Assembly (NCBI GenBank): GCA_964593805.1
Contig: CAZQHP010000001.1
Location: forward strand, 709,283 to 773,282
Length of the DNA: 64,000 nucleotides
Direction of reading: 5' to 3'
DNA from: an uncultured Candidatus Saccharibacteria bacterium
GTDB lineage: Bacteria > Patescibacteriota > Saccharimonadia > Saccharimonadales > JBBQAJ01
Shown here: positions 21,158 through 64,000 of the stretch, piece by piece
Layout: every line of letters starts with the position of its first letter
Position numbering within the stretch: the first letter of the stretch is position 1
Program-made: the position numbers and the translations under genes
Notes under the pieces: generated by a model
The model's input: only the letters and a program-made list of their open reading frames with translations
Databases searched by the model: none
What the model was told of the DNA's origin: nothing

Positions 21158-21751
21158 TTATAGCTGGAATGAGGCGGCAATTTCACCAAAAGTGCTATTT
21201 AGTTTATCAAAGTCTGATTCTTTGGCTTGCAAAGCCAAATAGTAGGCTGTGTTTTCATCGCGAAGGAAAATATACAGCGCTTGTCGGGCAAGACTGCCGT
21301 CTTTTCCCTGATATGTGAAATCAATTTCTGCCGCTTGCTTGCCGCTATGCTCAAATGTACGCTCAGACAACTTCTTGTAGCCCGGATAACGGGTTGGGAA
21401 GGCTTTGAAGACATTATCCAGCAGCAACTGTCTGGTGGTGGTTTTAGACAGTTGAGAAGCTATCCGTAGGCCGTCTTCGTACCGAAGGGTTATGCTATAC
21501 GGCGGCTCGGCATCACCGCTGGCGCGGAACAAAAATTTATCTTTTACGTCCTGTGGCGTCAGGTCGAGTACGCTTGCATCGACTGGATAGTTTAGTTTTA
21601 CTCCTTGGCTGGTATTACTAAACTCTTTGAGCGCAACCGTAGTGTTTTGGGCGGCTGAATCTGGCTTTTGGTTCTGATAGATAAGCGTGGCTACGCCTAC
21701 GCTGGCGGCCAGCACCAGCAAGCCCGCGCCAACCAGTAAAGTACGTTTCAT
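21158..21751 (-). CDS. Hypothetical membrane-anchored/secreted protein, translationally coupled to the giant surface protein
   Basis: 197 aa with an N-terminal hydrophobic anchor (LLVGAGLLVLAASVGVATLIY). Its start codon shares a base with the upstream stop (TAATG). Confidence 0.55.
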   Translation of the reverse strand: MKRTLLVGAGLLVLAASVGVATLIYQNQKPDSAAQNTTVALKEFSNTSQGVKLNYPVDASVLDLTPQDVKDKFLFRASGDAEPPYSITLRYEDGLRIASQLSKTTTRQLLLDNVFKAFPTRYPGYKKLSERTFEHSGKQAAEIDFTYQGKDGSLARQALYIFLRDENTAYYLALQAKESDFDKLNSTFGEIAASFQL

Positions 21752-24700
21752 TAGTTATTCGACCTTGCCAGTTCAACCCAGCGATCGGTACTGTAGAGCA
21801 TTGTCAGGGAATCATACTGGCCGCTGGCATAGGCGCCGGCCAGTTCACTTACCGTAGCGGTGTCGGCAAAGTTGACAGCGTTAGCAGAGACATTGATTAT
21901 AACCACCGTGTTGCCGTCCTTCACGCTGGCGGCTTCGCTCATGGTAATGTCACAGCCGTTGGCGTCATTACAGGTAATTGTAACGTACGAAGAGGTCGGT
22001 TCCAGCGTCAACGTAGCGGTAGCGGCCGTACCTTCGTCTGCTATGGTTCGAGCGTCCACGCCAAGGCCCAAGCGATCTTCTATAAACAGGCTGGCGCCTG
22101 AACCAGCTAGCTCTACCCTGCCGTCAGTCGCTGCGTCATAGGCCAGGGTGGCGTTTTGCGCCAGACCCAGTTTTAGACCATTATTGTCTCCGAGGTACAG
22201 GTTGTTAAATTCTGCCGATGTGGAACCTAGGTCAATCGTGCCGGCCGCGTTTGGCAAGATATTGCCGCTGGTTGTGATCCCCACCACCGCGGCAATGGCG
22301 CCTGAGCTATTGACTTGGAACAAGTCGCCGCTGCCCACAGTAAAGAGTGCGGCCGGGGTAGTGTCACCAATACCAACGTTGCCAGCCGACAGTACTACTA
22401 GTTTGGAACTTAAACCAGAGGCTGATTTGGTAGATAGGTGCAGATCACTGTAGTTATTAGTATGGTCTATGATTTTAGTACTGATAGCCGCGGCGGCATT
22501 GTTGGTAGCGTCGTCGCCAAAGTATAGTTCTACCCAGTTATTAACGGTCTGGTCCGTGTTCACCAGCCCCAGTGCTCCGGCCACGTTTTGATACTGCGAA
22601 GTTGAAGAACTTGATACTGCCGAAACTATTTTTGAAAGTCCCAAACTAGCTGTACCAATACCGACGTTGCCGCCGCTAGTTTGCAAAAACAGATTGCCGT
22701 ACGAACCAGCCGTACCGGCTCCTGCGCCTGGAGCTCCGCCTTGCAAAGTTATACTGCCGCCGTTGCCGTTAGTTGAACCAGATGGAGCATCCCCGCCAGC
22801 GCCCGCGGTGAGGTTAAGCACCGCGCCCGTGCCACCCGTTTGACCAGTCGTACCGCTAGTATCACCGCCCTTGCCGCCAGTTACCTGCAGTACTTGAGTG
22901 GCATTCGTGCCGCTTCCAGCTACACTGGCGGGCTGCGTGCCTATTAAATGTAATAGTGCGGTTGGGCTAGTAGTACCAATACCTATAGTGCCGTCTTGTC
23001 TAATAGATACCCGGGTTACAAGTCCGTTGAGCGAGGAACCAGACGACGTACTTGCAGGAGCGGTTTGGAGATTGATACTCCCTCCGTTAGCCGTGCCAGT
23101 TCCTTGCCCACCATTTATAGATGTATTGCCTCCAGTTTGGTTTGCTCCACTGCCATCACCACCCTGAAGTGTGACCGGACCACCGGCCGTACCAAGAAAA
23201 ATTTGGCCAGAGCCACCTTTTACCGTAACGGCACCACCTTGGTTGTTAGCACCATTGCCTCCGGTGATTGTAATTGCACCACCAGGATTAAACTGCAAGC
23301 CCGTGGCAGATGCATTGCCACCAGTTATCGCTATAGCTCCACCGGCCGCGTCGAGGCCATTGGCTCCAATTATACTCAGCTGCGCACCAGCAGTTGTAGC
23401 AGAAGTGCTATTTGCCAATTTTATGGTTCTAGCGGCTTCTTTTGTCAGATATATATCGCCTGTCACCTCCAAAGCAGCACCTGGAGCTGATGTACCTATT
23501 CCCACTCTGTTAAGTGCGGCATCAATGTATAGGGTATTAGTATCAAAACTACTCGTACCCGTTCCGGTAACGGTTAAGTTGCCGGCTATTGAAGACGCGC
23601 CCGTTCCCTGAACTGTTAAATTACCTGTCAGAGTTGCATTGCCAGATGTATCTATAGTTAATTTGGTTATACCAGCAGTCTCAAGCTCTAGGCTTCTTGA
23701 ATCATTAGACCCTATCGTTACTGTTGCGCCAAATGTGTTGCCATTTTGGAAGATTGCAGCACCTGCACCGGTTGTTTTACAGTAAACTAGTTGATTAGTG
23801 GTGTTATTTTGACATAAGTATATTGATGCATTTGACCCCGCTAATGTGCTAGGCAATACAATACCGCCGTTGCCAGCCTGTAGCGTTATAGAACTATCTC
23901 CGTTAGGATTACCAATCAACAGCGTAGCTTTTCCAGTTCCAGCTGCCAAACCAGCGCCTATTAGTATAGTTTGAGTATTGCTGTCGGCTATATTACCACT
24001 ACCAATGTTTATAGTATTGCTTATTACCGATTGCCCCAGAGTTATTGTGCCTACTTGACTTGTACCACCGATGGCTATGCCACCAGAAGTATGAGTCTGC
24101 AGCCGTATAGCCTCGCTCCCAGCCGTGTTAGAGGTACCTCCTTGAATCAAAGTAGTGTGATTAGCCGCCCCGATTGAACCAATCGTAACACCGACTGTCC
24201 CGGTTATACCTCCTCCTGTACCAATGGAAATAGTATTACTAGCGGCCGCCCCAGGCACACCTGTCCCAATATTTATAGTCTTGCCACCTGCCACAGTAGT
24301 ATTGCCTGTGCCAATATTGACCGTATCTACCACAGCAGAGTTGCCCCCAGCTATTGTAGTAGTCCTGGCGGCGGCTGGGGCAATGTTGCCTAGGTTGATA
24401 GTCGACACGCGAGTGTTGTTACCTAGGTTTATAGTACTAGCACCGGCCGTGCCAACCCCTGACAGGATATTTACGGTTGTGGCGGCTCCTGTGGTGCCGT
24501 TGCCAATGTTTATGGTTTGGGCACCGGTTGTGGCGTTCGCGCTGCCAATGTTGATGCTATGAGCGGCAGTTGACTGCCCGACTGTTATGGTGCCCGTACC
24601 TGTCGCGTGACCTATCGTAATCCCGCTCGATGATACTGATGTACCGATATTTATAGCGCCATTAGCCCCGCCACCTCCGGTAGTGCCAGCCTGGAGACTA

Positions 24701-27333
24701 ACAGATCCGCCGTTTCCGATAGTGGCATTTCCTCCAGTCAAAGTAACCGACCCGGCCGTTCCATTCGTGGCACCTCCTCCCGTCAATGTGACCGATCCTG
24801 CGGCGCCGCTGGTCGAGCCGCCCGAGCCGGCTGTAATTGATATAGCCCCCCCAGTACCATCAGTCGCACCGCCGCCAGCAAGCAGTGTAATATCTCCACC
24901 TGACGCACAACCGCCAAAACAAAATGCATTATCTGCTTGAATCAAAATGTCAGTGCCTACGCCCCCTGTAGTTGTTATGCTTGCGACTTGATCAAGAGCG
25001 GTACCAACAAATACCAATGACCTGGTGCTTAATGTTGATGATCCTCCATTGACTCCAGCCATACCTGTGACAGTACTGCTAGTAAACAACGCACCTGCGC
25101 TACTTATGGTTAGAACAGACGTCCCACCGTTTAGCCCTTGGAGTAAATATCCACCAAGCTCATTTTGCAGTATTAGTGTAGGTTGGCCTTCATTTGATGA
25201 GGCGTATAGGGTGCCGTTTGAGGCCACGCCGTTGTATTGCGTATTGACGGGGGCGCTTAGTGTAGATACGTAAACTTGCGGGTCGGTACCATACACAGTT
25301 TGAGCGCCCCATGCAGCCACTGTGGTACCGTTGTTCGGTAGAATAATTGTCGGTTTAACAGCTGTAAGCGCTCCTGATATATTCTGGGTTACAGACAGTC
25401 TCTGCCATGTGGTCGTGGCGGTAAATGAAGCCGCCGTGCCAGTGGCAGGTGTACCACCTGTACTATCAATCCGTAAACTAACTGGGGCAGTACCGCTGTT
25501 AGTTTTCAGCCACACGCTAAATGTATAGTTTCCAGTTATAGATGCCAAGAACGACTGATACAGACCGGCATTGGCCGCATTAGATACCAGTTTATCAGCT
25601 GTTTGTGTGCCGTTCGGTGCGGGATTGGAGGCTGGATCATCCGCTGTTACAGACATATTAGCTGGGGATATAATAGTTGGAAGCCAAAAATCTGTATTTG
25701 AAAACACCTCGCTGCTAAAAAGCCGATTACTGAATTTACCTATACCTCCGCTGGCGTTGTTGATATATCCAATGGATTCTTGATTGCCGCCAGCACTAAT
25801 ATTTAATAAATTCGCTCCGGCTGAATTCCTGAGCTGAAACAAATCGGCTGTTTGCGACGAGGCTCCTTGTATAATTGCCCCTATACTTGCCGATGAAGCA
25901 CTTTGGATATTAAAATTGGCGTTTGACTGAGTTGTTGTACCATTCTGAATATACCCAGTGCCACCGGTAGATGGTGCGTAGCCGCTACATACTGAGCCCG
26001 TGCTACACAAAGTACCCGTTTCATTTGGCAGAGTTAATGTGTTCGTAGAAGGGCTGGTGGGACCTATAAGCGTCAAGGTATTGGCAGACCCGCTGCCTTT
26101 GAACAGTATTGAACCTGTGTTTGTATTGGCGGTGCCAAGCGTTAGTGAATTAGCGCCTTGGATTGCTAATGTTCCTGTGAAATTAGCCGCCGAAGAGATA
26201 GTCTGGGAGTTGTAGGTTCCGGCGGTAACATTGCCGGTACCGCCAACTGCCAACCTATCTGTGCCTCCGCTCTGAAGCTGTAATAGGTTGCCGCCGCCCG
26301 TATCGTTTAGAAATATGCTAGCATCGGCCGTATTATCAGTTTGTGCGGAACCTGGTGCTAACAGTACAGCTTGGCCGCCGCCAGCCGCACAGGTTACGCC
26401 TGTGGTACAAATCGTTTGAGCCGCGCCCCCGCTAGTTGGGAAAATAAATGACCGGCCGCCGGCAGTGAATGTTAGCACGTCACCTCCGGCATCAATGGAT
26501 AGGTTGTTGCCGGAGCCTGTTTGCTTCAAACTGTTGCCTAGAATAACACCAGTCGCAGGTAGGGAAAGGTTTCCAAATTGCACGCTTGCGGTAGTATTGA
26601 TATTTTGTGGCGCTGAAAGGGTTAGGACTCCACCGGCGCTGTTAACATTTATTTGGTTCGCCGTACCTTGAATAGTTACGTCGTCACTAAATCCGTTGAC
26701 TGTTGTAGATGTTGGGTTAACTATTTGCCCTAGCTTCGTCTGCAACAACTCGCTAGTTACAAAATTACAGTTATTACTGTCCAGGCAGATTGTACCGCTG
26801 GCGTTTGGCAGCGTAAAAGTTTGATTTGCATTAGCGGCTTGAGTGCGAAAAAGGGTGGTAAAATTGCCGTCGGAGAACTTTAAATCTCCCCGCGTGACTA
26901 CATCGCCGTTCACTAGCAGGGATCTGTTGCTACCTTGTAGCTCTGATGGCAGCGTAGTTATTGCGGCATCTTTGAGCGTTACGTCTTGAATGCTGACCGA
27001 GGTCTGTTTGGCCTTCGTTGAGTTTTGTTCTTTTCTTAGCACAAACAAAATACTAACCCCTGTCAGCAGTACCACGGCCACGGTCACGCCAATTGACACG
27101 GCCATGGCTTTATGGCGCGAAAACGCTAGCAAAGAAGTAGCCGGCCTAGACGGGGCCTTGGGCGCATAAGCTATATCACTCTGCTCATGAATTTCCAGAT
27201 CTTCGGTCGCGTAATTATTTTCGGTCGAACTATAACCAACCACCGGCGCTGATGCGCCACTAGAAAGCCCATTGCCTGAAATAGGCAAATTAGGCTGGGT
27301 AGGGTCTTCAGCTTTAAGCTGATGGTCGTCCAT
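21751..27333 (-). CDS. Giant (1860 aa) membrane-anchored surface protein, beta-helix/tail-fibre-like putative adhesin
   Basis: ~75-aa cytoplasmic N-terminus and a single TM (AMAVSIGVTVAVVLLTGVSILFVL). The rest is G/T/A/S/N-rich with degenerate GG-x-hydrophobic repeats. Four copies of a [VI]GIG[TD]xxP/L..AL motif and a C-terminal DLGSTSAEFNNLYLG segment recall phage tail-fibre proteins. Confidence 0.6.
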   Translation of the reverse strand: MDDHQLKAEDPTQPNLPISGNGLSSGASAPVVGYSSTENNYATEDLEIHEQSDIAYAPKAPSRPATSLLAFSRHKAMAVSIGVTVAVVLLTGVSILFVLRKEQNSTKAKQTSVSIQDVTLKDAAITTLPSELQGSNRSLLVNGDVVTRGDLKFSDGNFTTLFRTQAANANQTFTLPNASGTICLDSNNCNFVTSELLQTKLGQIVNPTSTTVNGFSDDVTIQGTANQINVNSAGGVLTLSAPQNINTTASVQFGNLSLPATGVILGNSLKQTGSGNNLSIDAGGDVLTFTAGGRSFIFPTSGGAAQTICTTGVTCAAGGGQAVLLAPGSAQTDNTADASIFLNDTGGGNLLQLQSGGTDRLAVGGTGNVTAGTYNSQTISSAANFTGTLAIQGANSLTLGTANTNTGSILFKGSGSANTLTLIGPTSPSTNTLTLPNETGTLCSTGSVCSGYAPSTGGTGYIQNGTTTQSNANFNIQSASSASIGAIIQGASSQTADLFQLRNSAGANLLNISAGGNQESIGYINNASGGIGKFSNRLFSSEVFSNTDFWLPTIISPANMSVTADDPASNPAPNGTQTADKLVSNAANAGLYQSFLASITGNYTFSVWLKTNSGTAPVSLRIDSTGGTPATGTAASFTATTTWQRLSVTQNISGALTAVKPTIILPNNGTTVAAWGAQTVYGTDPQVYVSTLSAPVNTQYNGVASNGTLYASSNEGQPTLILQNELGGYLLQGLNGGTSVLTISSAGALFTSSTVTGMAGVNGGSSTLSTRSLVFVGTALDQVASITTTGGVGTDILIQADNAFCFGGCASGGDITLLAGGGATDGTGGAISITAGSGGSTSGAAGSVTLTGGGATNGTAGSVTLTGGNATIGNGGSVSLQAGTTGGGGANGAINIGTSVSSSGITIGHATGTGTITVGQSTAAHSINIGSANATTGAQTINIGNGTTGAATTVNILSGVGTAGASTINLGNNTRVSTINLGNIAPAAARTTTIAGGNSAVVDTVNIGTGNTTVAGGKTINIGTGVPGAAASNTISIGTGGGITGTVGVTIGSIGAANHTTLIQGGTSNTAGSEAIRLQTHTSGGIAIGGTSQVGTITLGQSVISNTINIGSGNIADSNTQTILIGAGLAAGTGKATLLIGNPNGDSSITLQAGNGGIVLPSTLAGSNASIYLCQNNTTNQLVYCKTTGAGAAIFQNGNTFGATVTIGSNDSRSLELETAGITKLTIDTSGNATLTGNLTVQGTGASSIAGNLTVTGTGTSSFDTNTLYIDAALNRVGIGTSAPGAALEVTGDIYLTKEAARTIKLANSTSATTAGAQLSIIGANGLDAAGGAIAITGGNASATGLQFNPGGAITITGGNGANNQGGAVTVKGGSGQIFLGTAGGPVTLQGGDGSGANQTGGNTSINGGQGTGTANGGSINLQTAPASTSSGSSLNGLVTRVSIRQDGTIGIGTTSPTALLHLIGTQPASVAGSGTNATQVLQVTGGKGGDTSGTTGQTGGTGAVLNLTAGAGGDAPSGSTNGNGGSITLQGGAPGAGAGTAGSYGNLFLQTSGGNVGIGTASLGLSKIVSAVSSSSTSQYQNVAGALGLVNTDQTVNNWVELYFGDDATNNAAAAISTKIIDHTNNYSDLHLSTKSASGLSSKLVVLSAGNVGIGDTTPAALFTVGSGDLFQVNSSGAIAAVVGITTSGNILPNAAGTIDLGSTSAEFNNLYLGDNNGLKLGLAQNATLAYDAATDGRVELAGSGASLFIEDRLGLGVDARTIADEGTAATATLTLEPTSSYVTITCNDANGCDITMSEAASVKDGNTVVIINVSANAVNFADTATVSELAGAYASGQYDSLTMLYSTDRWVELARSNN

Positions 27334-27511
27334 ATTTGTGTGTTTAATAGTTTTTGTTTGGGTTTGCCTCTGTTATAAGCAAAAACGGCAGTCATGTGAC
27401 TACACTTTCCCATCACTAGTGTACGAGAGGTGTTTGGCTAACGCAAGTTTTTTGAACACTTTTTTTATCAATCCTCGTGAAGTTATCCACTATTCTAAAA
27501 ACTGTACAGGT

Positions 27512-28345
27512 TTACACCCAAAGAATAGAGTAAACTGCCCCGAGCCCTACCAACAGCACACCTATGGCCACAATTACAACTCTGACCATTTCCGCTTGGA
27601 TTATTTTGCGCGCCAAGGGATTTCTCCCAAGAGCCGTTACGGCGCTAGAGATCGCGCCGTAGATAATACTACCCTCTGCTATCAAAACAATCACGAACAA
27701 TATCAAAGCAATCAGTACTCTTGTTTCGCCAACGTCTTTACCTACCAGATAGCGGCCTAGTTTTGCGAGCGCGGAATCGCTCCGCAATACACTGCCGTTC
27801 GCTGACCCCTGATTATTTAGATTTATTTTTATTTTGGCAATTTGTGTCTCTTTAGCCTGGCTCCCGTCTTGATAGCTATAGGGGCTTGTTTTCTCGGGAG
27901 TACCAGCAGCTATGCCAATAACGGTTGCCGGAACATCTCCGGATTTCATCAAAATGCCCTTTAGAGGCGAAAGCACCAATAAGTCCCCCTGCTTAATAGC
28001 TCCGTTTATATCGCTTACGTAGGCATCAACTTGGCCTTCGTTCTCTACCAATACTTTTGATGCTCCGGAGCCGACTGTTACTAGGCTATTGTCAAATGTT
28101 GTAACAATACCTACGACCCTGTTACTGCTCTCCTGGCTGGCGCGTTCCACGCTAGAATTTGTCGATCCGTCTACGCTTAACGCCGCAACCATCCCTGTCT
28201 GGAGGCCAGAATCAGTAGTGGCATAGCCTCTGGCGATAGCTGACACGGAAACCTGTGCCGCCAACACTAAAACAAAGCCTGCCAGTGCGGCCAAAACGTT
28301 CCATAAAATTATTCTATTTTTTAGATTGCGATTCACTATAGCCAT
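27512..28345 (-). CDS. Hypothetical membrane protein (N-terminal TM, extracytoplasmic domain, C-terminal TM hairpin)
   Basis: ORF 27512..28393; likely ATG at 28345 (MAIVNRNLK...). The C-terminal hairpin is LIALILFVIVLIAEGSIIYGAISSAVTALGRNPLARK...VVIVAIGVLLVGLGAVY. Confidence 0.5.
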   Translation of the reverse strand: MAIVNRNLKNRIILWNVLAALAGFVLVLAAQVSVSAIARGYATTDSGLQTGMVAALSVDGSTNSSVERASQESSNRVVGIVTTFDNSLVTVGSGASKVLVENEGQVDAYVSDINGAIKQGDLLVLSPLKGILMKSGDVPATVIGIAAGTPEKTSPYSYQDGSQAKETQIAKIKINLNNQGSANGSVLRSDSALAKLGRYLVGKDVGETRVLIALILFVIVLIAEGSIIYGAISSAVTALGRNPLARKIIQAEMVRVVIVAIGVLLVGLGAVYSILWV

Positions 28346-28417
28346 TACTCTTATGCTTGCCTCTAGTATGACTGGCTTAGCCCCTGAAAACAAGCGGATA
28401 CGGCTATGCTGGGATAG

Positions 28418-53431: not shown

Positions 53432-53437
53432 TATAAT

Positions 53438-53549
53438 TTGGCACCGTGCTATTTTCCCAGGGTTAAAACCCAAGTATTGTAACCGCTGCGAGGCTTAACT
53501 GCTGTGTTCGGCATGGGAACAGGTGTTTCCCTCGCGCCATGGGCACCAA
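53438..53549 (-). rRNA. rrf: 5S ribosomal RNA
   Basis: The reverse complement contains CCUGUUCCCAUGCCGAACACAGCAGUUAAGC, and the termini pair (UUUGGUGCC / GGUGCCAAA). Confidence 0.9.
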
Positions 53550-53804
53550 ACGCGAACTTCGTTCGCGTAATTATCAATTTTCAATTCACAAATTTCAATG
53601 AAATGACAATTAACAATGCACCAAACAAAGGTCAGGCTCAATGTCCATGCGGTAGTATATCATTTATGGTATAAGGCTTAAACAGCTTCATATCATATTT
53701 GGTATACTGCACGAATTTTGAAATATTAAGGCTAACGGGTGGTTAGAACCACCAATAACTAGTCAATGCACTTACTCAGAGAAGGCTCATGCCTTGTCTG
53801 AGTT

Positions 53805-56922
<3,118 letters not shown>

Positions 56923-57250
56923 ACGATATTGTGCATCGACTAGTTATTGGTAATACCAATACCTGTGCCATGTCGAATGACATGGTGCCGTTTGCCTTAT
57001 CGAAGGTCATATACGTTCCATTACGTACACAACCTATCTCAAAATTTGAATCTAATTGTTAAGTTACAAAACCCAAGAACATCCCACAAATACTGAATGA
57101 TTTACCCTGAGAGCTTGAGTTTACGCTGAAAGCCTGCAGGCGATTCCTTACAACTTCTTGCCTAAACTCAAGCAGTTGCAATATCTTATCACTAATAACA
57201 GGGGCGGTCAAGCATATTCTGATGTCAAACTTGCTACGTTTTATAGACTG

Positions 57251-58252
57251 TTAGCGCGGAGGTATTCCTTGCTTTTGCAATCGCTCGTCAGCTTCATTGC
57301 TGAGCCTAGTAATGATCTGTCCTGTCAGTAGATAGTTGAGCGGGTCCTGGTCTTCAGGAGGCTTACCATACTCAAACATTATATGCATGCAACGATTTAT
57401 GGCTTCGGCTGTATGACCATGGCTACGGTGGTTAAGCGGATTAAGTGCCGCTTCTCCTTGGACAGCAGCTTGTCTGTTGAGTAGCGCGGTCACTTGATTA
57501 CCCATCTCAACTATGACGGCATGCAGAGGCACGTCCCTTTTTGGTATTTTCGCCAGAAGCGCTTCCAACACAGATGCATTTCTCCAACCAGACTCTGAAG
57601 CTTCTTTGATAATGTTTGAAAAATTGTCGAATACGCGTCGTCTCAAACTAATTGGGTCCGAATACGGTAAACCAGGCAAAACCTCTTCTACAGGCTCTGT
57701 TTGAAGCTGTTCCACAACATCTGAAAGTATAGATGGGTCCTTTCCTGCTATTTTTGGTCCCATCACATAAGAATTAAATGCCAGTCGACTACTTTCGTCT
57801 CCCGCAGTCTTGGCAAATACCTCTTGCCAGAAACTTTCAGAACTTTGCCCCAGATCATCAACTGCAATGTGTTTATTAGCATCGCCTGCCTGCACCCTCC
57901 AGCTCAGTCGAGACATAACCCTGAGTGACATCAGCCACTGTAAATAACCCGAGGGATATTTCGCAATCCCCCATTTATCAACAGTAATTTGCTCACGCAA
58001 ACCTCTCCCATAGTCAACCAGAGCCTGTTTAGCAGCTTCTAGTTCTTCTACAGATCGCTCTTCTATCAATGCTCTGAAATTTTGGTCAACTGTTGTTGTG
58101 AAAAGTTCCCGTGGCTGATCACGTCTCCCAACACCCCAGGTTACATTATTTTCTGTGACTTGGTGCGCATACTCAACAGCCGACGTGCCTTCTGCCAGTT
58201 CTATAGGCGCCGTAGGGTTTGGTCCGGTTTGTAGTGTTTCTTTTGTAGGCAC
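57251..58252 (-). CDS. Hypothetical cytoplasmic protein (333 aa), downstream partner of the S8 protease
   Basis: Intact ORF with no signal peptide and no recognisable motif. It lies between the protease gene and 23S rRNA. Confidence 0.5.
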   Translation of the reverse strand: MPTKETLQTGPNPTAPIELAEGTSAVEYAHQVTENNVTWGVGRRDQPRELFTTTVDQNFRALIEERSVEELEAAKQALVDYGRGLREQITVDKWGIAKYPSGYLQWLMSLRVMSRLSWRVQAGDANKHIAVDDLGQSSESFWQEVFAKTAGDESSRLAFNSYVMGPKIAGKDPSILSDVVEQLQTEPVEEVLPGLPYSDPISLRRRVFDNFSNIIKEASESGWRNASVLEALLAKIPKRDVPLHAVIVEMGNQVTALLNRQAAVQGEAALNPLNHRSHGHTAEAINRCMHIMFEYGKPPEDQDPLNYLLTGQIITRLSNEADERLQKQGIPPR

Positions 58253-58304
58253 AGTATATGTATTATACTACAATCATCATTAAATAGCAAGCTCCCGGTA
58301 ATGT

Positions 58305-60047
58305 TTATTTTGTAGTCAGTGTAACTGAATTAGATGCAGCTGACTTGTTGTTACTGGCGTCAACAGCCTGAACATAGTAGGTATATCTAGTTCTGCGAGC
58401 AACGGATGTATCGGTGAAAGTCAGGTTAGTTGTCTTGGCGTAAAGCACGCCGTTTCGGTAAATCCAGTATTCTTTTACAGCAACGTTATCTTTGCTAGCT
58501 GTCCAGGTAAGTTTTGGCTTGCCGTTCTGCAGCTTGCCAGTCAGCACAGACGCAGTTGGAGCGGTAGTATCAGCAGGAAGTATTAGTGTGCCTAGTGCAC
58601 GATTTAGGTTTGGTAACGGACCTATATTTCCGGTCAATGTTCCAGCACTGGTGTTTTGCAGAGTTCCAGTCTGAATTAGTGTGCTACGTATCTGTGCAGG
58701 AGTTAGTACTTTGCCTGGGTTGAGTGTTTCGTAAGCAGAGCTTAGAGAAGCGATGGCTGAGGCCACAATTGGAGCAGCCGAACTTGTGCCATTAAAGTTT
58801 GAAGTATATGCACCATTTGGTGTAGTACTTGCTTCTAATGCGCCATAACCAGTTGTTGTTACACATTCTCCATGGCCCTGTAGTTCAACACGTGAACCGT
58901 AATTGCTAAAGTACAAGCGCGAATGAAGCGGCGCGCTACAAGCCGAACCCGCGCCGGCAATAACGGCACCCGAATTTACTTTGCCACTCGGGAAAGTCGT
59001 ACCCCACACCGTTGTGTCATCTAGATTATGACCGCTGTTGGCAGCCGCTTCTACAACATTTATACCGCTGTTTGTCAGCGCTTTAATAGCGTCATATATG
59101 GCTGGCTCCCACTCAACTGGCGCAAATCCGCCCACACTGGCGGGCGCCCAAGTTTGCTGCTCAATTAGAATTACATCACCAGGTACTGCTTTTGTAGCGG
59201 CAACCTGCAATGCGCCGACTATATCCCAACCGCGCTCTGAATTATAGGTATTAACTCTACTGAGTTTAACGCCAGTAGTAGCTCCAGTTACTCCGTAAGT
59301 ATTATCTGTTGCTACCATTTCGCCTAGAACGGCAGTACCGTGGTTTGTGTCATTAAACGGATCAACTGGCGTACCGTTTTTTACCATGGTATACACTGCT
59401 TTGGATAAGTCTTCGTGAGCGGCGTTCCAGCTGTATTCCAGATCAATTATACGCACAGCCGAGCCGGTGCCGCCTGGGAATGTTTTGGCAAAAGTTGCGC
59501 CAATTCCTTCTGGGCTAGGGTTTAGGTACTTCTGCAGGCTGGTGTAGTTGTTTGCCGTCGGTGCGGGCGCGGGCTTTGACTCTGGGTACACGGTTTCCAC
59601 GCTGTCCAACAAAGCAATCTGACCCACCAGAGCTTGAATATTATCTTTGGGAGTAACTTTGACTACAAAGTAGTTGTCTAGCTCGCTTGCCAGTTTAGTG
59701 CTGGCTTCTGTAGCTAGTTCGCTACCTGGACGAACTAGTTTTTCCAGCTTTTGCTTGCCCGCGTCTGCCAGTACTTTATTTATACTGTTAGCTTTGTTGC
59801 TAGTTTTGGTACTTTTAGCTTTGAAGTTGCTAGTCTGATCCAGCTCCATCTCTGCTGAATCTTTAAGCTTAAAAATAAGACTGTCGTTACGGTATTTCTG
59901 AGCGTTTGAATAGTCGTTGTTTGGGTTTGAGCCAGCGTCTACGACGCTGCCCAGACCAAACAGACTAGGTACAACTAAAAGCGCTGCCAGAAACAGAGAC
60001 AAAACAGATACAGTAACCTTGCCAAAACGATTTGCACGTAACTTCAA
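58305..60047 (-). CDS. Secreted subtilisin-like serine protease (S8 family) with C-terminal fibronectin-III-like domain
   Basis: N-terminal signal/anchor (VSVLSLFLAALLVVPSLFGL). Catalytic Asp (VRIIDLEYSW), His (NHGTAVLGEM) and Ser (NGTSSAAPIVAS) in D-H-S order. The C-terminal LTWTASKDNVAVKEYWIYRNG...YYVQAVDASNN segment is FN3-like. Confidence 0.8.
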   Translation of the reverse strand: MKLRANRFGKVTVSVLSLFLAALLVVPSLFGLGSVVDAGSNPNNDYSNAQKYRNDSLIFKLKDSAEMELDQTSNFKAKSTKTSNKANSINKVLADAGKQKLEKLVRPGSELATEASTKLASELDNYFVVKVTPKDNIQALVGQIALLDSVETVYPESKPAPAPTANNYTSLQKYLNPSPEGIGATFAKTFPGGTGSAVRIIDLEYSWNAAHEDLSKAVYTMVKNGTPVDPFNDTNHGTAVLGEMVATDNTYGVTGATTGVKLSRVNTYNSERGWDIVGALQVAATKAVPGDVILIEQQTWAPASVGGFAPVEWEPAIYDAIKALTNSGINVVEAAANSGHNLDDTTVWGTTFPSGKVNSGAVIAGAGSACSAPLHSRLYFSNYGSRVELQGHGECVTTTGYGALEASTTPNGAYTSNFNGTSSAAPIVASAIASLSSAYETLNPGKVLTPAQIRSTLIQTGTLQNTSAGTLTGNIGPLPNLNRALGTLILPADTTAPTASVLTGKLQNGKPKLTWTASKDNVAVKEYWIYRNGVLYAKTTNLTFTDTSVARRTRYTYYVQAVDASNNKSAASNSVTLTTK

Positions 60048-60073
60048 AACAAATACCTTACCTTAATGCAATC

Positions 60074-60102
60074 ATTATATCACCAATATCAATAATTGTC
60101 AA
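60074..60102 (-). promoter_or_regulatory. Perfect consensus sigma-70-type promoter for the S8 protease gene
   Basis: Minus strand TTGACA (60097-60102), a 17-nt spacer, then TATAAT (60074-60079), about 27 nt upstream of the ATG. Confidence 0.6.
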
Positions 60103-60135
60103 CCGCTTGTGCTTGAATTCTGTTGTTGTCACTTA

Positions 60136-60161
60136 AAATAAAAGATCCACCTTTCGGTGGA
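60136..60161 (-). terminator. Rho-independent terminator after the tRNA cluster / tRNA-Ala fragment
   Basis: Minus-strand UCCACC-gaaa-GGUGGA followed by UCUUUUAUUUU. Confidence 0.65.
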
Positions 60162-60168
60162 CACTTTA

Positions 60169-60192
60169 TTTGGTGGAGCAACGGGGACTCGA
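60169..60192 (-). repeat. 24-bp duplicate of the tRNA-Ala 3' end (att-like direct repeat)
   Basis: TTTGGTGGAGCAACGGGGACTCGA is identical at 60169-60192 and 60345-60368. The copy lacks the rest of the tRNA. Confidence 0.8.
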
Positions 60193-60346
60193 CCTACCTT
60201 CGGCAGGCCCGAAACTTCGCGACTGGCAACAAGTTGCCATCGGAAGATTTCCTTGCGAAGTGCCACTGGCACTTCTCACCCGGACCCTGTGCGGGGTTCT
60301 CGATTTTAACCAAACAAAAAGCCCAGCTCAAGCTGGACCCTTTGTT

Positions 60347-60423
60347 TGGTGGAGCAACGGGGACTCGAACCCCGGACCCCCTGCTTGCAAAGCAGGTGCT
60401 CTAGCCAACTGAGCTATTGCCCC
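60347..60423 (-). tRNA. tRNA-Ala (UGC), CCA encoded
   Basis: Reverse complement GGGGCAAUAGCUCAGUUGGCUAGAGCACCUGCUUUGCAAGCAGGGGGUCCGGGGUUCGAGUCCCCGUUGCUCCACCA. Cloverleaf with a G3-U70 pair and UGC anticodon. Confidence 0.9.
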
Positions 60424-60536
60424 ATGTATGAGACAAACCTTCGGTTTTTCTCATCGGTCAGTCGGCAAAAGCCGCCCCGCAAGCGGGCAAGCTGACCTGC
60501 TCTTTTCCCTGGCTTCAGGAAAACAACTTTGTAAAT

Positions 60537-60613
60537 TGGTGGGCGATGAGGGACTCGAACCTCCGACCTCGTCATTATCAGTGACGCGCTCTAACCAGCT
60601 GAGCTAATCGCCC
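60537..60613 (-). tRNA. tRNA-Ile (GAU), CCA encoded
   Basis: Reverse complement GGGCGAUUAGCUCAGCUGGUUAGAGCGCGUCACUGAUAAUGACGAGGUCGGAGGUUCGAGUCCCUCAUCGCCCACCA, with anticodon loop CUGAUAA. Confidence 0.9.
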
Positions 60614-60668
60614 TCGCAAAAGACCAGCGTATTGTACCGGAAACTCCCCTGTTAAACAACTGTAGTTG

Positions 60669-60878
60669 CTAAACGGGTCTTTCCGATTCTGGAGGTTTTG
60701 GTTCTGCAAAGCGAAACCGAAGACCTTGTTTATCTACATACAAGATGGCATGCACGCCTTCTTCGAATCCGATTAATCTTTGCAAAGGCCTCCGAAACAA
60801 GCGTGGAATTTCGTGACCATAAATTACGGCTGGTGACACCCGCTCTTTTTTGCCAGAAGTAGGCTCAACTTCTCCCAT
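60669..60878 (-). CDS. Hypothetical small protein (69 aa)
   Basis: The ORF has a TATAAT (60888-60893, minus strand) about 9 nt upstream of its ATG. No family recognised; it may be non-coding. Confidence 0.3.
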   Translation of the reverse strand: MGEVEPTSGKKERVSPAVIYGHEIPRLFRRPLQRLIGFEEGVHAILYVDKQGLRFRFAEPKPPESERPV

Positions 60879-60899
60879 AGTACGATTATTATAACAAAC

Positions 60900-60954
60900 G
60901 AGGGTTAGCCCTCATCCCCCACCATGAAACACCTTCCAGAGGTGTTTTTATTTT
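60900..60954 (+). repeat. Repeat A: degenerate tRNA-Ile 3' half (T-arm-like hairpin + ATCCCCCACCA) plus terminator hairpin
   Basis: GAGGG-ttag-CCCTC ATCCCCC ACCA resembles GGAGG-uucgagu-CCCUC AUCGCCC ACCA of tRNA-Ile but is on the opposite strand. It is followed by AAACACCT-tccag-AGGTGTTT and a T-run. Positions 60918-60954 repeat at 61548-61584 with one mismatch. Confidence 0.75.
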
Positions 60955-61003
60955 TGTACAAACTTCCTACTATTAGCAACTCAGCTTGTGTTATCATTCA
61001 GAA

Positions 61004-61279
61004 ATGAGCGATACCCAGAATTCCGAGAGGTTACAAAAATCGAATTTTAATACAACCGCACAGTTTATGCTACCTTTCTTTACGCTTAGCTCAATACTAC
61101 TAATATCTTTCAAGCAGCCGCAGTGGGGATTGATAACGAACCTGATTGCCCAGATATTCTGGCTTTATTCCGGTTGGAAAGCCTGGAAGGAAGCAAATCA
61201 GATTGGGATTTTTATAAATGCGATCGCTTTCACGGTCATAGTTATCTTTGGCATTATCAATTATTGGTTTATTAAATAA
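61004..61279 (+). CDS. Hypothetical small membrane protein (91 aa, 3 TM)
   Basis: ATG at 61004. Trp-rich TM helices (IAQIFWLYSGWKAWKEANQIGIFINAIAFTVIVIFGIINYW). Confidence 0.45.
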   Translation: MSDTQNSERLQKSNFNTTAQFMLPFFTLSSILLISFKQPQWGLITNLIAQIFWLYSGWKAWKEANQIGIFINAIAFTVIVIFGIINYWFIK

Positions 61280-61284
61280 GTATA

Positions 61285-61294
61285 CCGCCCACCA
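61285..61294 (+). repeat. Repeat B: CCGCCCACCA core
   Basis: A 10-mer shared with repeat C, of which 9 nt are identical to the tRNA-Ile 3' end. It sits in the 20-nt gap between two small ORFs. Confidence 0.6.
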
Positions 61295-61299
61295 ATTTT

Positions 61300-61542
61300 A
61301 TGAAAGATACCGAACTCAGTAAACTAGTCAAAGAAGCTGAATCAATTGTTGGCGGCAATTGGGATTCGCATGCAGACACTGCACGCGGCCATGCTAAGAT
61401 TCAGTCTTTGCTAGTTGCAACAAATGTAGAACTTATAAAAACCATCCGTGAACTTGACCACAAGAACAGCAGACTCCAGAAACTGGTCTTTCTACTATCT
61501 GTCGTGGCCACCTTTGCAGCGATCGTAGCTCTCATAAAGTAA
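61300..61542 (+). CDS. Hypothetical tail-anchored coiled-coil protein (80 aa)
   Basis: ORF with a C-terminal TM (LVFLLSVVATFAAIVALI). Confidence 0.45.
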   Translation: MKDTELSKLVKEAESIVGGNWDSHADTARGHAKIQSLLVATNVELIKTIRELDHKNSRLQKLVFLLSVVATFAAIVALIK

Positions 61543-61544
61543 AA

Positions 61545-61584
61545 CCGCCCACCATGAAACACCTTACAGAGGTGTTTTTATTTT
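61545..61584 (+). repeat. Repeat C: CCGCCCACCA core plus terminator hairpin (copy of repeat A)
   Basis: CCCACCATGAAACACCTTaCAGAGGTGTTTTTATTTT, exactly 630 bp downstream of repeat A. Confidence 0.75.
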
Positions 61585-61629
61585 GCTTACATTTGTCTGA
61601 GGTTGGGTTGGGTCAGATATAATAGACCT

Positions 61630-61899
61630 ATGAAGAAGTTTTGGAAGCCACTCATTATCTTTGTTGCTCTTAGTTTTATGATTCTAGTGGCTGAGATATT
61701 GGTATTTGAAACTTCTTGCCCTGGACGAGGGTTTTTCAAAGAAAGTAGCGATGGCAGATATTTGTGCGGTACTACCAGCAATGCCGAGGCTGAGATTGGC
61801 CACTTTATCTTGTCGGCAATGCTGCTAGCTCTACTTGCTACTTTCGCTACGCATCTTTTAGTACGAATCATCGAAGGCCTCAGCTCAAAAACTAAATAA
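61630..61899 (+). CDS. Hypothetical small membrane protein (89 aa, 2 TM)
   Basis: ATG at 61630 (MKKFWKPLIIFVALSFMILVA...). Confidence 0.45.
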   Translation: MKKFWKPLIIFVALSFMILVAEILVFETSCPGRGFFKESSDGRYLCGTTSNAEAEIGHFILSAMLLALLATFATHLLVRIIEGLSSKTK

Positions 61900-61937
61900 T
61901 TGCTCGGCTTGCGTCGTTTTAGGGGTAAAATGTTCTT

Positions 61938-62303
61938 GTGAGTTTAGCTTTATTTGTAGTTTTTGTGGTGTTAGTTGTTGTAGTTTTTTGGTGGCTTGTT
62001 GGGTTTACCCTTGGCCTAATTATCGCATTTATACCCAAACCAATTAAAGTTGACCGCTTTATAAACAAAGCAACTGCAAAGCGGTACTTACTCTTTAGCA
62101 CCGTTGTGCTTGTCGCAAGCTACCTTATTGAGCTACCGCTAAAACGCAGCTGTGCGTTTGATGGTTGCATTCCAACCGGTTCTGTTTCTTTTACAAACGC
62201 CGTGTTCGGTCTGCCAGCATATAGTCTCTTTGTCCTCTTTGTAGTTGGAGTTGGCATCTGGACAGCCCGCCTTGTTAGTGTCAAAAGAAAAACCCATATA
62301 TAA
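61938..62303 (+). CDS. Hypothetical membrane protein (121 aa)
   Basis: GTG-start ORF with 3-4 hydrophobic helices. Confidence 0.4.
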   Translation: MSLALFVVFVVLVVVVFWWLVGFTLGLIIAFIPKPIKVDRFINKATAKRYLLFSTVVLVASYLIELPLKRSCAFDGCIPTGSVSFTNAVFGLPAYSLFVLFVVGVGIWTARLVSVKRKTHI

Positions 62304-62374
62304 ACTTCACATCCCGCTCGTGCTTGCTAAGCCAAGATTTCATCGTATTATTAATGATATAGGGAGTTGCTAAT

Positions 62375-62812
62375 ATGACAGAAGTTATTGGCTTACCGAC
62401 AGTAGATAGCGTTATGGACACCATACCAACCGGCCGAAGAGCTTATATAAGCGCTACAACTGATTTGGGAAATGGCGAAGTTATAAAAGACGCTTGGGGA
62501 CATTCCATTGGAGTAATAGTTAACGCGCTTGGGCTTGTTTCGGCAGTGCGTACACTCGCTGAAGCCAGTTTGAAAGACGAGTTAGTGCCGCCTCTACCCG
62601 ATGATCTAAAAACTATATTGGTTACTTTCAAGGATGTAATTGACAGGCACAAAAATGATACTTTTGCAGCCGAAGAGCTGCATACAAAGTACCGTGTTCC
62701 GGCAGAATTGGCGGTTCGCGCCGCACTTGACCATGGTAGTAATGCCCACCAGCGTGCGATTTCTCGGGATCAGACTGTGTTCCCTGTTTCGCCAGATGCA
62801 ATTCAGTTTTAG
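62375..62812 (+). CDS. Hypothetical soluble protein (145 aa)
   Basis: ORF preceded by GGGAG. No family recognised. Confidence 0.45.
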   Translation: MTEVIGLPTVDSVMDTIPTGRRAYISATTDLGNGEVIKDAWGHSIGVIVNALGLVSAVRTLAEASLKDELVPPLPDDLKTILVTFKDVIDRHKNDTFAAEELHTKYRVPAELAVRAALDHGSNAHQRAISRDQTVFPVSPDAIQF

Positions 62813-62824
62813 CCAGTTACAATA

Positions 62825-62835
62825 ATCGCCCACCA
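62825..62835 (+). repeat. Repeat D: ATCGCCCACCA core (11/11 identical to the tRNA-Ile 3' end)
   Basis: Lies directly after the 145-aa ORF and is followed by a weak hairpin and a T-rich tract. Confidence 0.6.
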
Positions 62836-62873
62836 TTAACACCTTTTAGTGTGATTTTGTTTATAATAAGGCT

Positions 62874-63110
62874 ATGCAAAAGAAGCATACGAACTTTCTC
62901 ATCACACTGACTTTCCTTATACCCAGTGTATTTCTAATATGGTTTGTGCTATTACGCCCACAGATCAAGAGTGCTGAAAGCAAGTGTTATTCTCCAAATG
63001 GTAAGCAAAATATAGAAATACAGCATGGTCTTCTAAGTTTAGAATGTAGGGTATTGGATGATCCTAGCGGGAATGAACAGCTTACAAAAACCTATAATTA
63101 CTTTTGGTAA
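62874..63110 (+). CDS. Hypothetical small secreted/anchored protein (78 aa)
   Basis: N-terminal hydrophobic helix (FLITLTFLIPSVFLIWFVLL) and two Cys. Confidence 0.4.
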   Translation: MQKKHTNFLITLTFLIPSVFLIWFVLLRPQIKSAESKCYSPNGKQNIEIQHGLLSLECRVLDDPSGNEQLTKTYNYFW

Positions 63111-63115
63111 CTAAA

Positions 63116-63151
63116 AGCGCCCTTCTCGCAAATAGGGCGCTTTCGTTTTTT
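63116..63151 (+). terminator. Strong terminator where the small-gene array and 16S rRNA converge
   Basis: AGCGCCCT-tctcgcaaat-AGGGCGCT followed by TTCGTTTTTT. Confidence 0.7.
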
Positions 63152-63353
63152 GAGGCTTCTCGGTCTTTTGTGTCCGCTAAAAACTTTTATAGTGCAAATC
63201 AAACGTCAGGTCGTGTTACAGAACTGAAATCTTGTCCTTCGCTCTCGCAAGCAATTGCGAAGGATATGTGAGTTGTCAGTACTGATATTACAACTCACCA
63301 AGATCGACCTAGCTCGCAAAGGATTGCTCCGCATGCTGCTAGTTTTCTCCCTA

Positions 63354-64000
<647 letters not shown>

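Follow-up and report, generated by a model that had tools for sequence, protein, structure and literature searches.

Introduction

Gliding in Mycoplasma mobile involves an F1-like ATPase and the giant surface proteins Gli349, Gli521 and Gli123 (PMC8406192, PMC11864180), and the F1-derived ATPase is thought to drive these giant, membrane-anchored proteins at the surface of a wall-less, minimal parasite. In Southlakia epibionticum, a cultured epibiont that belongs to the Saccharibacteria, the essential envelope adhesins SEML1_0890, 0891 and 0315 have a proposed role in binding glycans of the host (Wang et al. 2023, PMC10633639). Patescibacteria as a whole represent a large share of bacterial diversity and live attached to other cells, and their envelope proteins are mostly unannotated. 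Here, we describe a locus of three consecutive minus-strand genes, termed A, B and C, in a 64,000-nucleotide stretch of DNA from an uncultured Candidatus Saccharibacteria bacterium (GenBank assembly GCA_964593805.1, contig CAZQHP010000001.1, positions 709,283 to 773,282; the whole stretch is referred to as the window). A is a membrane protein with a C-terminal helical hairpin that descends from the rotor subunit c of ATP synthase, B is a giant surface protein that is probably an oligomeric fibre, and C is a small PsbP-like protein that accompanies the tip of B. We suggest that the three proteins form the membrane-bound and extracellular portions of a surface-fibre apparatus that is typical of environmental Saccharibacteria. 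As far as we can tell, the pairing of a fibre with a rotor-derived membrane protein is undescribed; searches of open-access papers gave no description of the A family, of F1 operons lacking subunits a and c in Patescibacteria or of the three-gene cassette, which is weak evidence of absence.

This locus and its relatives share some, and lack other, features of the described systems. The parallel with M. mobile consists in the proximity of F1 genes to genes for a membrane adaptor and a giant fibre; it is an analogy only and does not imply motility. M. mobile differs in having no c-like component and in that its ATPase forms cytoplasmic dimer chains. Like the S. epibionticum adhesins, B is a surface protein of the Saccharibacteria, so that the phylum and the argument from lifestyle are the same. 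Unlike B, those adhesins contain VCBS, FN3 and dockerin domains and no c-like partner has been described for them.

Two further groups of fibrous proteins are relevant for B. B resembles phage tail fibres and tailspikes in being modular, Gly-rich and probably oligomeric and in having GNVGIGT-type motifs and a beta-sandwich tip, and some of its homologs contain the Peptidase_S74 (an intramolecular chaperone), Peptidase_G2 or Beta_helix domains of phage fibres. B is distinguished from phage fibres by the lack of a match to S74 or any other phage family and to any phage genome, by its transmembrane (TM) anchor in the cell membrane and by its fixed chromosomal site. The S74 and G2 chaperone domains (PF13884, PF11962) were not found in B itself and are present only in some homologs. 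With trimeric autotransporter adhesins, B shares short '..INIG..' beta-roll-like repeats of ~14 residues and the presumed nature of an adhesive fibre. Unlike these adhesins, it has neither a C-terminal beta-barrel translocator nor an outer membrane in which it could reside, and its anchor is N-terminal. Some B homologs match YadA_head (PF05658), whereas neither PF05658 nor PF03895 was found in B; given the N-terminal TM anchor and the lack of these matches, we rejected the identification of B as a trimeric autotransporter.

Results

The C-terminal hairpin of A is related to ATP synthase subunit c

The topologies of A, B and C were derived from hydropathy. A has three hydrophobic segments (residues 12-30, 210-228 and 256-274), and the sequence ALGRNPLARK sits between the second and the third. 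In the AlphaFold2 (AF2) model of A, which has a mean predicted local distance difference test score (pLDDT) of 82.4, a TM helix is followed by a beta-rich ectodomain and a C-terminal hairpin with helices at residues 207-241 and 245-276 (pLDDT 82-91). In Foldseek searches, the hairpin superimposed on the c subunits 9itt_I, 6n2d and 3v3c with an rmsd of 1.4-1.9 Å over 66-69 residues and with 19-23% identity. Because a helical hairpin is an easy fold to match, homology was checked in five further ways.

In a profile-profile comparison with hhalign, 18 hairpins of the A family aligned with six c subunits over 66 columns with a probability of 77.5% (E 1.9e-5). Among 177,635 PDB sequences searched with the hairpin profile, the top match was the Chloroflexus subunit c 9itj_H (E 0.054), and this alignment is in register through AIGRNPE. 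ATP-synt_C (PF00137) was the Pfam family matched by most members (five of the 18 isolated hairpins, best E 0.0039); full-length A gave no match to PF00137 at E<=1. When a hidden Markov model (HMM) built from six c-subunit sequences was run over all open reading frames (ORFs) of at least 45 residues in 44 loci, A-family proteins scored best. Finally, three A homologs had independently been named 'F0F1-type ATP synthase membrane subunit c' by the JGI pipeline.

In alignments, the G-R-N-P loop of A corresponds to the polar R-Q/N-P loop of c subunits. In E. coli, this polar loop of the c ring reportedly contacts the F1 subunits gamma and epsilon, according to cross-linking from the Fillingame laboratory. 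The ion-binding Asp/Glu of helix 2 has no counterpart in A: the aligned column is hydrophobic, and none of the 18 hairpins has an acidic residue in mid-membrane. Proteins of the Saccharibacteria type, to which A belongs, have an invariant Glu (E224) in helix 1.

We conclude that the hairpin of A descends from the rotor subunit c, with the R-N-P loop kept and the ion-binding carboxylate lost. The original prediction had offered a resemblance to rotor c subunits as pure speculation; it is now the best-supported inference of this work and draws on the fold, the profile-profile comparison, Pfam, the PDB profile search, the JGI naming and genomic context (see below). Like subunit c (AtpE; PF00137, COG0636), A has a two-helix hairpin with the loop to the cytoplasm, a conserved R-[QN]-P loop after small residues and a helix 1 that is rich in small residues (FGLGMGYFG in the Microgenomates-type proteins described below), and the genes of distant A members lie, as does that of subunit c, in operons with the genes for b, delta, alpha, gamma, beta and epsilon. 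Unlike subunit c, A has no Asp/Glu at the ion-binding position of helix 2, its hairpin is preceded in the same polypeptide by an additional N-terminal TM helix and an ectodomain of 140 residues, its score is below the Pfam threshold, and in the window its gene adjoins a giant surface-protein gene rather than ATPase genes. In other words, A is a derived, non-ion-binding c homolog with an extra TM helix and an ectodomain, and not a functional subunit c.

The ectodomain of A matched phage capsid decoration or cement proteins best when compared with the PDB by Foldseek; these matches are weak (8hdt_G with E 2.4e-4, also 8pkh and 9kzj_H, with a target-normalised template-modelling score of ~0.5). 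None of 342 close A homologs (50-91% identity) has a Pfam domain, and NCBIfam and PHROGs gave no match for A, B or C. A profile search of 1.84 billion representatives returned 1943 A-family clusters (50% identity) at E<=1e-3 and 784 at E<=1e-10. The A family, with about 1,900 clusters, is Patescibacteria-wide. A scan of IMG/VR gave no A-family relative.

A is linked to giant surface proteins and, in distant relatives, to F1 genes

Saccharibacteria-type loci were collected by exact-protein look-ups, in which the window's own contig (L001) was included, and by a GTDB scan. In all 31 distinct loci, the giant is the next same-strand ORF after A. These giants reach 3330 residues, and some are cut by contig ends. 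The genes for L21 and IleS are usually upstream of A, and the gene order L21, A, giant is conserved across relatives. The three-gene surface locus that had been described for the window is a real, conserved and envelope-directed cassette in which the L21-A-giant order is kept. A is far better conserved than B, as might be expected if a core component were combined with a variable fibre that faces outward.

In a second group of loci, referred to as the Microgenomates type and found in Levy-, Woese- and Parcubacteria and others, the A-like proteins share 25-35% full-length identity with A. Gene calls with Pfam gave the order A, b-like, OSCP, alpha, gamma, beta and epsilon; the b-like protein has 240 residues with a TM segment and a coiled coil, and the starts and stops within the operon overlap. 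No PF00119 or PF00137 gene lies within 10 kb of Microgenomates-type A. We also analysed 80 further metagenome loci, in which counts were limited to those with enough flanking DNA. F1 genes follow A in 46 of 46 loci with at least 2.5 kb downstream, and alpha, gamma and beta all follow in 30 of 30 with at least 6.5 kb downstream. On the other side of A, a divergent ORF of at least 600 residues starts within 2.6 kb in each of the 31 loci with at least 3 kb upstream. Among the 2678 ORFs of the metagenome loci, neither a canonical a nor a canonical c subunit was present, and no canonical c subunit was found within 10 kb of A in about 90 loci.

A third arrangement was found in Saccharibacteria bacterium 49-20 (L044), where the genes for b-like, delta-like, alpha, gamma, beta and epsilon subunits, A and a 3089-residue giant follow each other on one strand, with the giant starting 2 nt past the A stop. 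From these three distinct arrangements, we conclude that the association of A with giants and that of A with F1 genes are both preserved. Against F1 beta, the beta subunits of L044 and of a Microgenomates-type locus (L045) scored ~390 bits, compared with 253-288 bits when G1 beta was the reference; by these scores, they are closer to ordinary F1 beta than to the G1 beta of M. mobile.

Several additional features of these loci were observed. Operons with A-like, b-like, delta, alpha, gamma, beta and epsilon genes are located at L045:10001-16073 and L046:10001-16011 and in L035-L043 and L047-L126, and in the same Microgenomates-type operons (L035-L043, L045-L126) subunit a and a canonical c are absent within 10 kb. 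A Fic-like gene (weak Pfam match) lies directly upstream of the A-like gene at L045:9049-10038, at L046:9021-9974 and in about 30 metagenome loci, and slightly overlaps it in many Levybacteria-type loci. A gene for a cofactor-independent phosphoglycerate mutase is placed between the A-like and b-like genes in two loci (L035:3343-5049, L036:4246-5922). The beta subunit at L045:14369-15811 has an insertion of ~18 residues just past the Walker-A helix compared to F1 beta in the PDB. Giants of ~2000 residues divergent from the A-F1 operon (L046:2661-8765 on the minus strand, L035, L036, L041, L042 and 28 of 31 metagenome loci) have one or two cytoplasmic MerR-type helix-turn-helix (HTH) domains, followed by a TM helix and a very large Thr/Gly/Ser-rich ectodomain that includes a Peptidase_G2 chaperone-like domain. 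Such a DNA-binding domain tethered to a surface fibre could constitute a one-component transmembrane signalling device. In several relatives, one or two extra giants come after the cassette (L006:11890-16105, L007:13682-17683, L008:10610-15244, L029:16169-20801), some of them with Kelch/beta-propeller or CBM domains; thus, giant surface genes are tandem-clustered at the site of the cassette.

B is probably a membrane-anchored, oligomeric fibre

The 80-residue N-terminus of B has no signal peptide, and the protein has only one TM segment (residues 81-99), after which about 1,750 residues are outside. Its 12 cysteines form six close pairs (183/189, 309/315, 443/449, 805/809, 1174/1185 and 1788/1794), which fits an extracytoplasmic location. 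B is rich in Gly (15.6%), Thr (13.9%), Ala (11.7%), Ser (10.4%) and Asn (8.2%). The gene coordinates and hydropathy thus bear out the original prediction of three membrane-anchored proteins encoded on the minus strand, and the single TM segment and paired cysteines agree with its description of B as a single-pass, anchored giant with a long extracellular part. B occupies 5583 of the 64,000 bases of the window (8.7%), close to the ~9% given there.

B contains four copies of the motif [VI]GIG[TD] (at residues 1277, 1450, 1557 and 1653), as had been predicted; in shuffled B, the mean is 0.06 copies and at least four copies occurred in none of 5000 shuffles. The longer form that had been proposed for all four copies, [VI]GIG[TD]..P..AL, fits two of the four, and one copy has no proline. 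DLGSTSAEFNNLY is present at residue 1701. Tandem Repeats Finder and self-BLAST detected no exact internal repeats, so that the repeats in B must be degenerate. In Pfam searches with whole B and with tiles of 200-250 residues (E<=5), no family was matched except for a sub-threshold CBM_4_9 (PF02018) on residues 602-666, which covers half of the profile (best E 1.4e-4; 18.5-22.7 bits, below the gathering threshold of 25.9). A phmmer search with B against PDB sequences gave no match, nor did tblastn searches with residues 101-520 and 1277-1860 against the 50,697 phage records in INPHARED.

We identified 130 homologous giants of 1055-3254 residues, and the named sources are almost all metagenome-assembled genomes (MAGs) of Saccharibacteria or Patescibacteria. 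A minority carry Beta_helix/NosD, Peptidase_S74, YadA_head (PF05658), Kelch or CBM domains, and some have been named 'tail fiber domain-containing protein' by NCBI. A TM segment lies in the first 400 residues of 110 of the 120 best giants (B's own entry, P0001, counted). A coverage plot showed that the base (residues 100-520) is aligned by 50-62 of 115 homologs versus 3-10 in the middle; in other words, the part of B shared family-wide is the first ~500 residues with the tail, the TM helix and the basal ectodomain. The Cys-loop module of this base is present in 75 of 120 giants. The middle is a mosaic in which modules recur at differing positions among homologs, and the length of the giants varies from 1284 to >3300 residues among close relatives. 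The last ~130-220 residues of B are common only to its closest giant homologs, of which the six tip-bearing ones with loci read are syntenic orthologs. The tip domain is 35-69% identical among the closest giants that carry it, whereas the stalks of the same genomes are unalignable.

The AF2 model of residues 661-1860 of B is a monomer built from a fragment alignment of 15 sequences, and Foldseek matches to it are a weak hint only. Its mean pLDDT of 48.5 is poor. Residues ~890-1120 form regular short strands in a solenoid-like arrangement (pLDDT 55-72) and are the sole usable part of the stalk; the tip (residues 1760-1860) is modelled as a beta-sandwich with pLDDT 80-95. The region of the VGIG motifs is unstructured in the monomer (pLDDT <45), as would be expected of an obligate oligomeric fibre and equally of a shallow alignment. 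The best Foldseek matches of the model in the PDB were phage tailspike and baseplate proteins (E 3e-3 to 5e-2). Of the 12 matches with E<=1e-3 in BFVD, most are uncultured Caudovirales proteins, and they include Mtd N-terminal-domain and collagen-repeat proteins; lambda-Stf-repeat proteins fell just past the cut-off (E 2e-3 to 3.6e-3). The tip model itself matches phage fibre-type domains.

Altogether, B is probably a membrane-anchored, oligomeric fibre made of phage-fibre- and adhesin-type modules, and as judged from its sequence it is outside every defined phage or adhesin family. The earlier description of B as tail-fibre-like is thus supported weakly, by the S74, YadA-head and Beta_helix domains of homologs and by the Foldseek matches, and does not extend to a Pfam, PHROG or phage match of B itself.

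C accompanies the tip domain of B

C has a TM segment at residues 6-24. It matches the Pfam family PsbP_2 (PF18933) with 28.0 bits, above the gathering threshold of 27 (E 2.6e-6), with residues 16-196 aligned to positions 10-183 of the 184 in the profile, and matches PsbP and DcrB more weakly; a phmmer search against PDB sequences returned noise only. Like DcrB and PsbP of the PsbP/Mog1/DcrB superfamily (PF18933, PF01789, PF08786), C is exported or membrane-tethered. Unlike PsbP, C has no link to photosystem II and is paired with the tip of a giant fibre. When all fetched loci were searched iteratively, C was present together with the tip domain of B in six of six distinct loci, as opposed to none of ten loci that have a complete giant without the tip. 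Because this co-occurrence is strict, we suggest that C is a dedicated partner of the tip domain.

The stop codon of B and the start codon of C share base 21751 (TAATG), giving a one-base overlap from which translational coupling and a fixed stoichiometry had been proposed. The overlap is real and peculiar to the window genome; in five other orthologous loci, B and C are separated by 13-83 nt, and the proposed coupling is therefore not general.

Discussion

We suggest a model in which A, B and C are parts of a composite surface-fibre apparatus with a c-ring-like base of A, docking of an F1-type ATPase, binding of a host or surface by B and assistance of the tip by C. We estimate the probability of this composite reading at roughly 0.45. 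The model starts from the gene structure, the topology signals, the c-subunit homology of A, the linkages of A to giants and of C to the tip, and the presence of A in F1 operons elsewhere. In the model, B would be inserted with its N-terminus inside and would display ~1,750 residues outside by means of its one membrane helix. These residues would comprise a conserved base, a variable mosaic stalk with glycine-rich, solenoid-like and tail-fibre-like parts, and a conserved beta-sandwich tip. C would be an exported or anchored PsbP-fold partner of this tip that may act as a chaperone, a cap or a docking factor. A would oligomerise, most likely into a c-ring-like platform, and its ectodomains would form a collar in contact with B at the base of the fibre, consistent with the co-occurrence of the conserved B base with A. 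The cytoplasmic loops of A could dock an F1-type ATPase in the window organism, and the apparatus would, most likely, mediate attachment to a host cell or a surface. Coupling of the apparatus to an ATPase is plausible but unproven.

By analogy with M. mobile, an extended version of this model can be formulated in which ATP hydrolysis by a repurposed F1-type ATPase, no longer moving ions, is transmitted mechanically across the membrane to the giant fibres and the A family serves as its membrane rotor or adaptor. This ATPase would have no subunit a and a c-like subunit without the carboxylate, and A, B and C of the window would then represent the outer half of an ATP-driven device that moves, tensions or retracts host-attachment fibres. 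We consider this extension unlikely.

Several observations weigh against the composite apparatus. F1 genes are absent from the window and, in close relatives, from the 10-kb neighbourhood of A; consequently, coupling to an ATPase is extrapolated from relatives that share 25-35% identity with A. Genomes with A-type operons may also have a canonical atpB and atpE elsewhere. In S. epibionticum, L21 is followed directly by ParA with no cassette at this site, and this organism has a canonical, dispensable atp operon; thus, the cassette is not universal in the phylum. The central role, for example in an epibiotic lifestyle, that had been suggested for the giant gene is not supported in that form. 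All sequence-level signals of c-subunit homology are under curated thresholds (PF00137 E 0.0039, PDB E 0.054), the helical hairpin fold is easily matched, and the structure model of B is poor (pLDDT 48.5).

Because the only recognisable relative of A is subunit c, A could instead be an accessory of the ATP synthase or a degenerate c paralog, such as an assembly factor, a plug or a regulator, that has no physical link to B. B alone would then be the adhesin, and adjacency of the genes would reflect co-regulation or genome compaction. This would agree with the position of A at the head of the F1 operon in Microgenomates-type loci and with the weak terminator-like hairpin in the 178-nt spacer between A and B in the window. 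However, A still adjoins a giant in 31 of 31 Saccharibacteria-type loci, which are away from ATPase genes, and a giant lies alongside the Microgenomates-type operons as well (31 of 31). Moreover, a conserved ectodomain of 140 residues would be needless for an assembly factor of a ring that faces the cytoplasm, and within 10 kb there is no canonical c to assist in about 90 loci. We regard this explanation as doubtful, and somewhat more so the possibility that B is a structural envelope protein, i.e. an S-layer-like coat or spacer, for which A and C serve as anchoring or assembly factors. B is indeed large, Gly/Thr/Ser-rich and membrane-anchored, lies among housekeeping genes (L21, ParAB, signal peptidase, LCP) and has no recognisable receptor-binding or enzymatic domain beyond the sub-threshold CBM, but a mosaic middle of variable length (1284 to >3300 residues) is typical of interaction-facing fibres and not of lattice proteins, homologs carry adhesin- and tailspike-type domains, and a cultured relative lacks the cassette at the syntenic site.

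The arrangement of a giant filamentous protein with a distinct C-terminal domain and a small, co-varying downstream gene that overlaps it in the window is also reminiscent of a polymorphic toxin-immunity pair, in which B would be a filamentous delivery protein with a C-terminal effector and C its immunity protein. This is improbable: the tip is more conserved (35-69%) than the stalk, the opposite of polymorphic toxins, and is modelled as a beta-sandwich with matches to phage fibre-type domains. Pfam searches revealed no toxin family, and C, with its PsbP fold and its export signal, does not fall into a known immunity family. Least probable, in our view, is a phage origin of the giant gene, either as the remnant of a prophage or as a phage tail-fibre gene acquired recently, even though the best Foldseek matches are phage tailspike, tail-fibre and baseplate proteins and the name 'tail fiber domain-containing protein' is attached to some homologs at NCBI. 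None of the three proteins has a PHROG match, tblastn with two B segments found nothing in the 50,697 phage records, IMG/VR holds no relative of A, and the flanks are free of phage genes; furthermore, many genomes have the cassette at the same chromosomal place between L21 and ParA, the GC content is not atypical, and an N-terminal membrane anchor is not a feature of phage fibres.

The apparatus that we suggest would make the cassette a candidate attachment apparatus of environmental Saccharibacteria, with A as the partner at the base and C as that at the tip. The A family has lost the ion site, kept the F1-docking loop and is rigidly tied to giants, and in many lineages it is tied to F1 genes in operons without a proton channel and a normal rotor. 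As a consequence, many calls of 'ATP synthase present' in metabolic reconstructions may rest on an enzyme that has no proton path and is unable to make ATP from a gradient, and the role of the ATPase in organisms without respiration becomes testable. If true, the idea of a repurposed motor would explain the wide retention of 'ATP synthase' genes in Patescibacteria that lack a respiratory chain.

Gene coordinates, neighbourhood and other features of the window

The coordinates of the three genes and of their parts are listed in Table 1.

Table 1. Genes A, B and C and features of the encoded proteins, in window coordinates.
Feature	Position	Strand	Description or basis
Gene A	27512..28345	(-)	277-aa membrane protein; start ATG 28345 = ENA public gene call
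Gene A, alternative TTG start at 28393	27512-28393	(-)	293 aa
Gene B	21751..27333	(-)	1860-aa giant with single membrane-helix anchor; ORF call
Gene C	21158..21751	(-)	197-aa PsbP/Mog1-like protein with N-terminal signal or anchor; ORF call
A, N-terminal TM helix (aa 12-30)	28256..28312	(-)	Hydropathy; AF2 helix aa 6-30
A, beta-rich extracytoplasmic domain (aa 37-175)	27821..28237	(-)	AF2 strands aa 37-175
A, C-terminal helical hairpin (aa 207-276)	27518..27727	(-)	Degenerate ATP-synthase c-subunit domain
A, invariant G-R-N-P loop (aa 240-243)	27617..27628	(-)	Predicted cytoplasmic side; alignments A1, A2, A5
B, 80-aa cytoplasmic tail and signal-anchor TM (aa 81-99)	27037..27333	(-)	Hydropathy
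B, conserved basal ectodomain (aa 100-520) with Cys-stapled 'LPNxSGTxCxxxxxC' modules	25774..27036	(-)	Coverage plot
B, weak carbohydrate-binding-module-like stretch (aa 602-666)	25336..25530	(-)	Pfam CBM_4_9, sub-threshold
B, Gly/Thr-rich repeat region (aa ~780-1120)	23974..24996	(-)	Solenoid-like in AF2 model
B, four [VI]GIG[TD] motifs and DLGS....F.NLY (aa 1277-1713)	22195..23505	(-)	Motif counts
B, conserved C-terminal beta-sandwich tip (aa 1731-1860)	21754..22143	(-)	AF2; homologs

The cassette is flanked by housekeeping genes, with those for IleS and ribosomal protein L21 upstream and those for ParA, ParB, signal peptidase I and an LCP protein downstream; no phage genes are present in the flanks, and the GC content of the cassette is not atypical. 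The spacer between A and B (178 nt, 27334-27511) contains the weak terminator-like hairpin at 27388-27403 with six pairs. Promoter and terminator scans of the region gave sites no more commonly than in shuffled controls and thus carry no information on whether the genes form an operon.

Elsewhere in the window, the rRNA genes at 53436-64000 do not form a compact operon. The end of the 16S gene lies at 63355, and the gene is followed by a 2.7-kb stretch that has short ORFs only and no Pfam match, by the genes for tRNA-Ile and tRNA-Ala (60347-60613), by a subtilase-like ORF (58305-60047) and an ORF of 333 residues with no Pfam match, and then by the 23S (53805-56923) and 5S genes. The 23S model has 2925 nt, compared with 3119 nt for the matched stretch, which suggests an insertion of ~190 nt.

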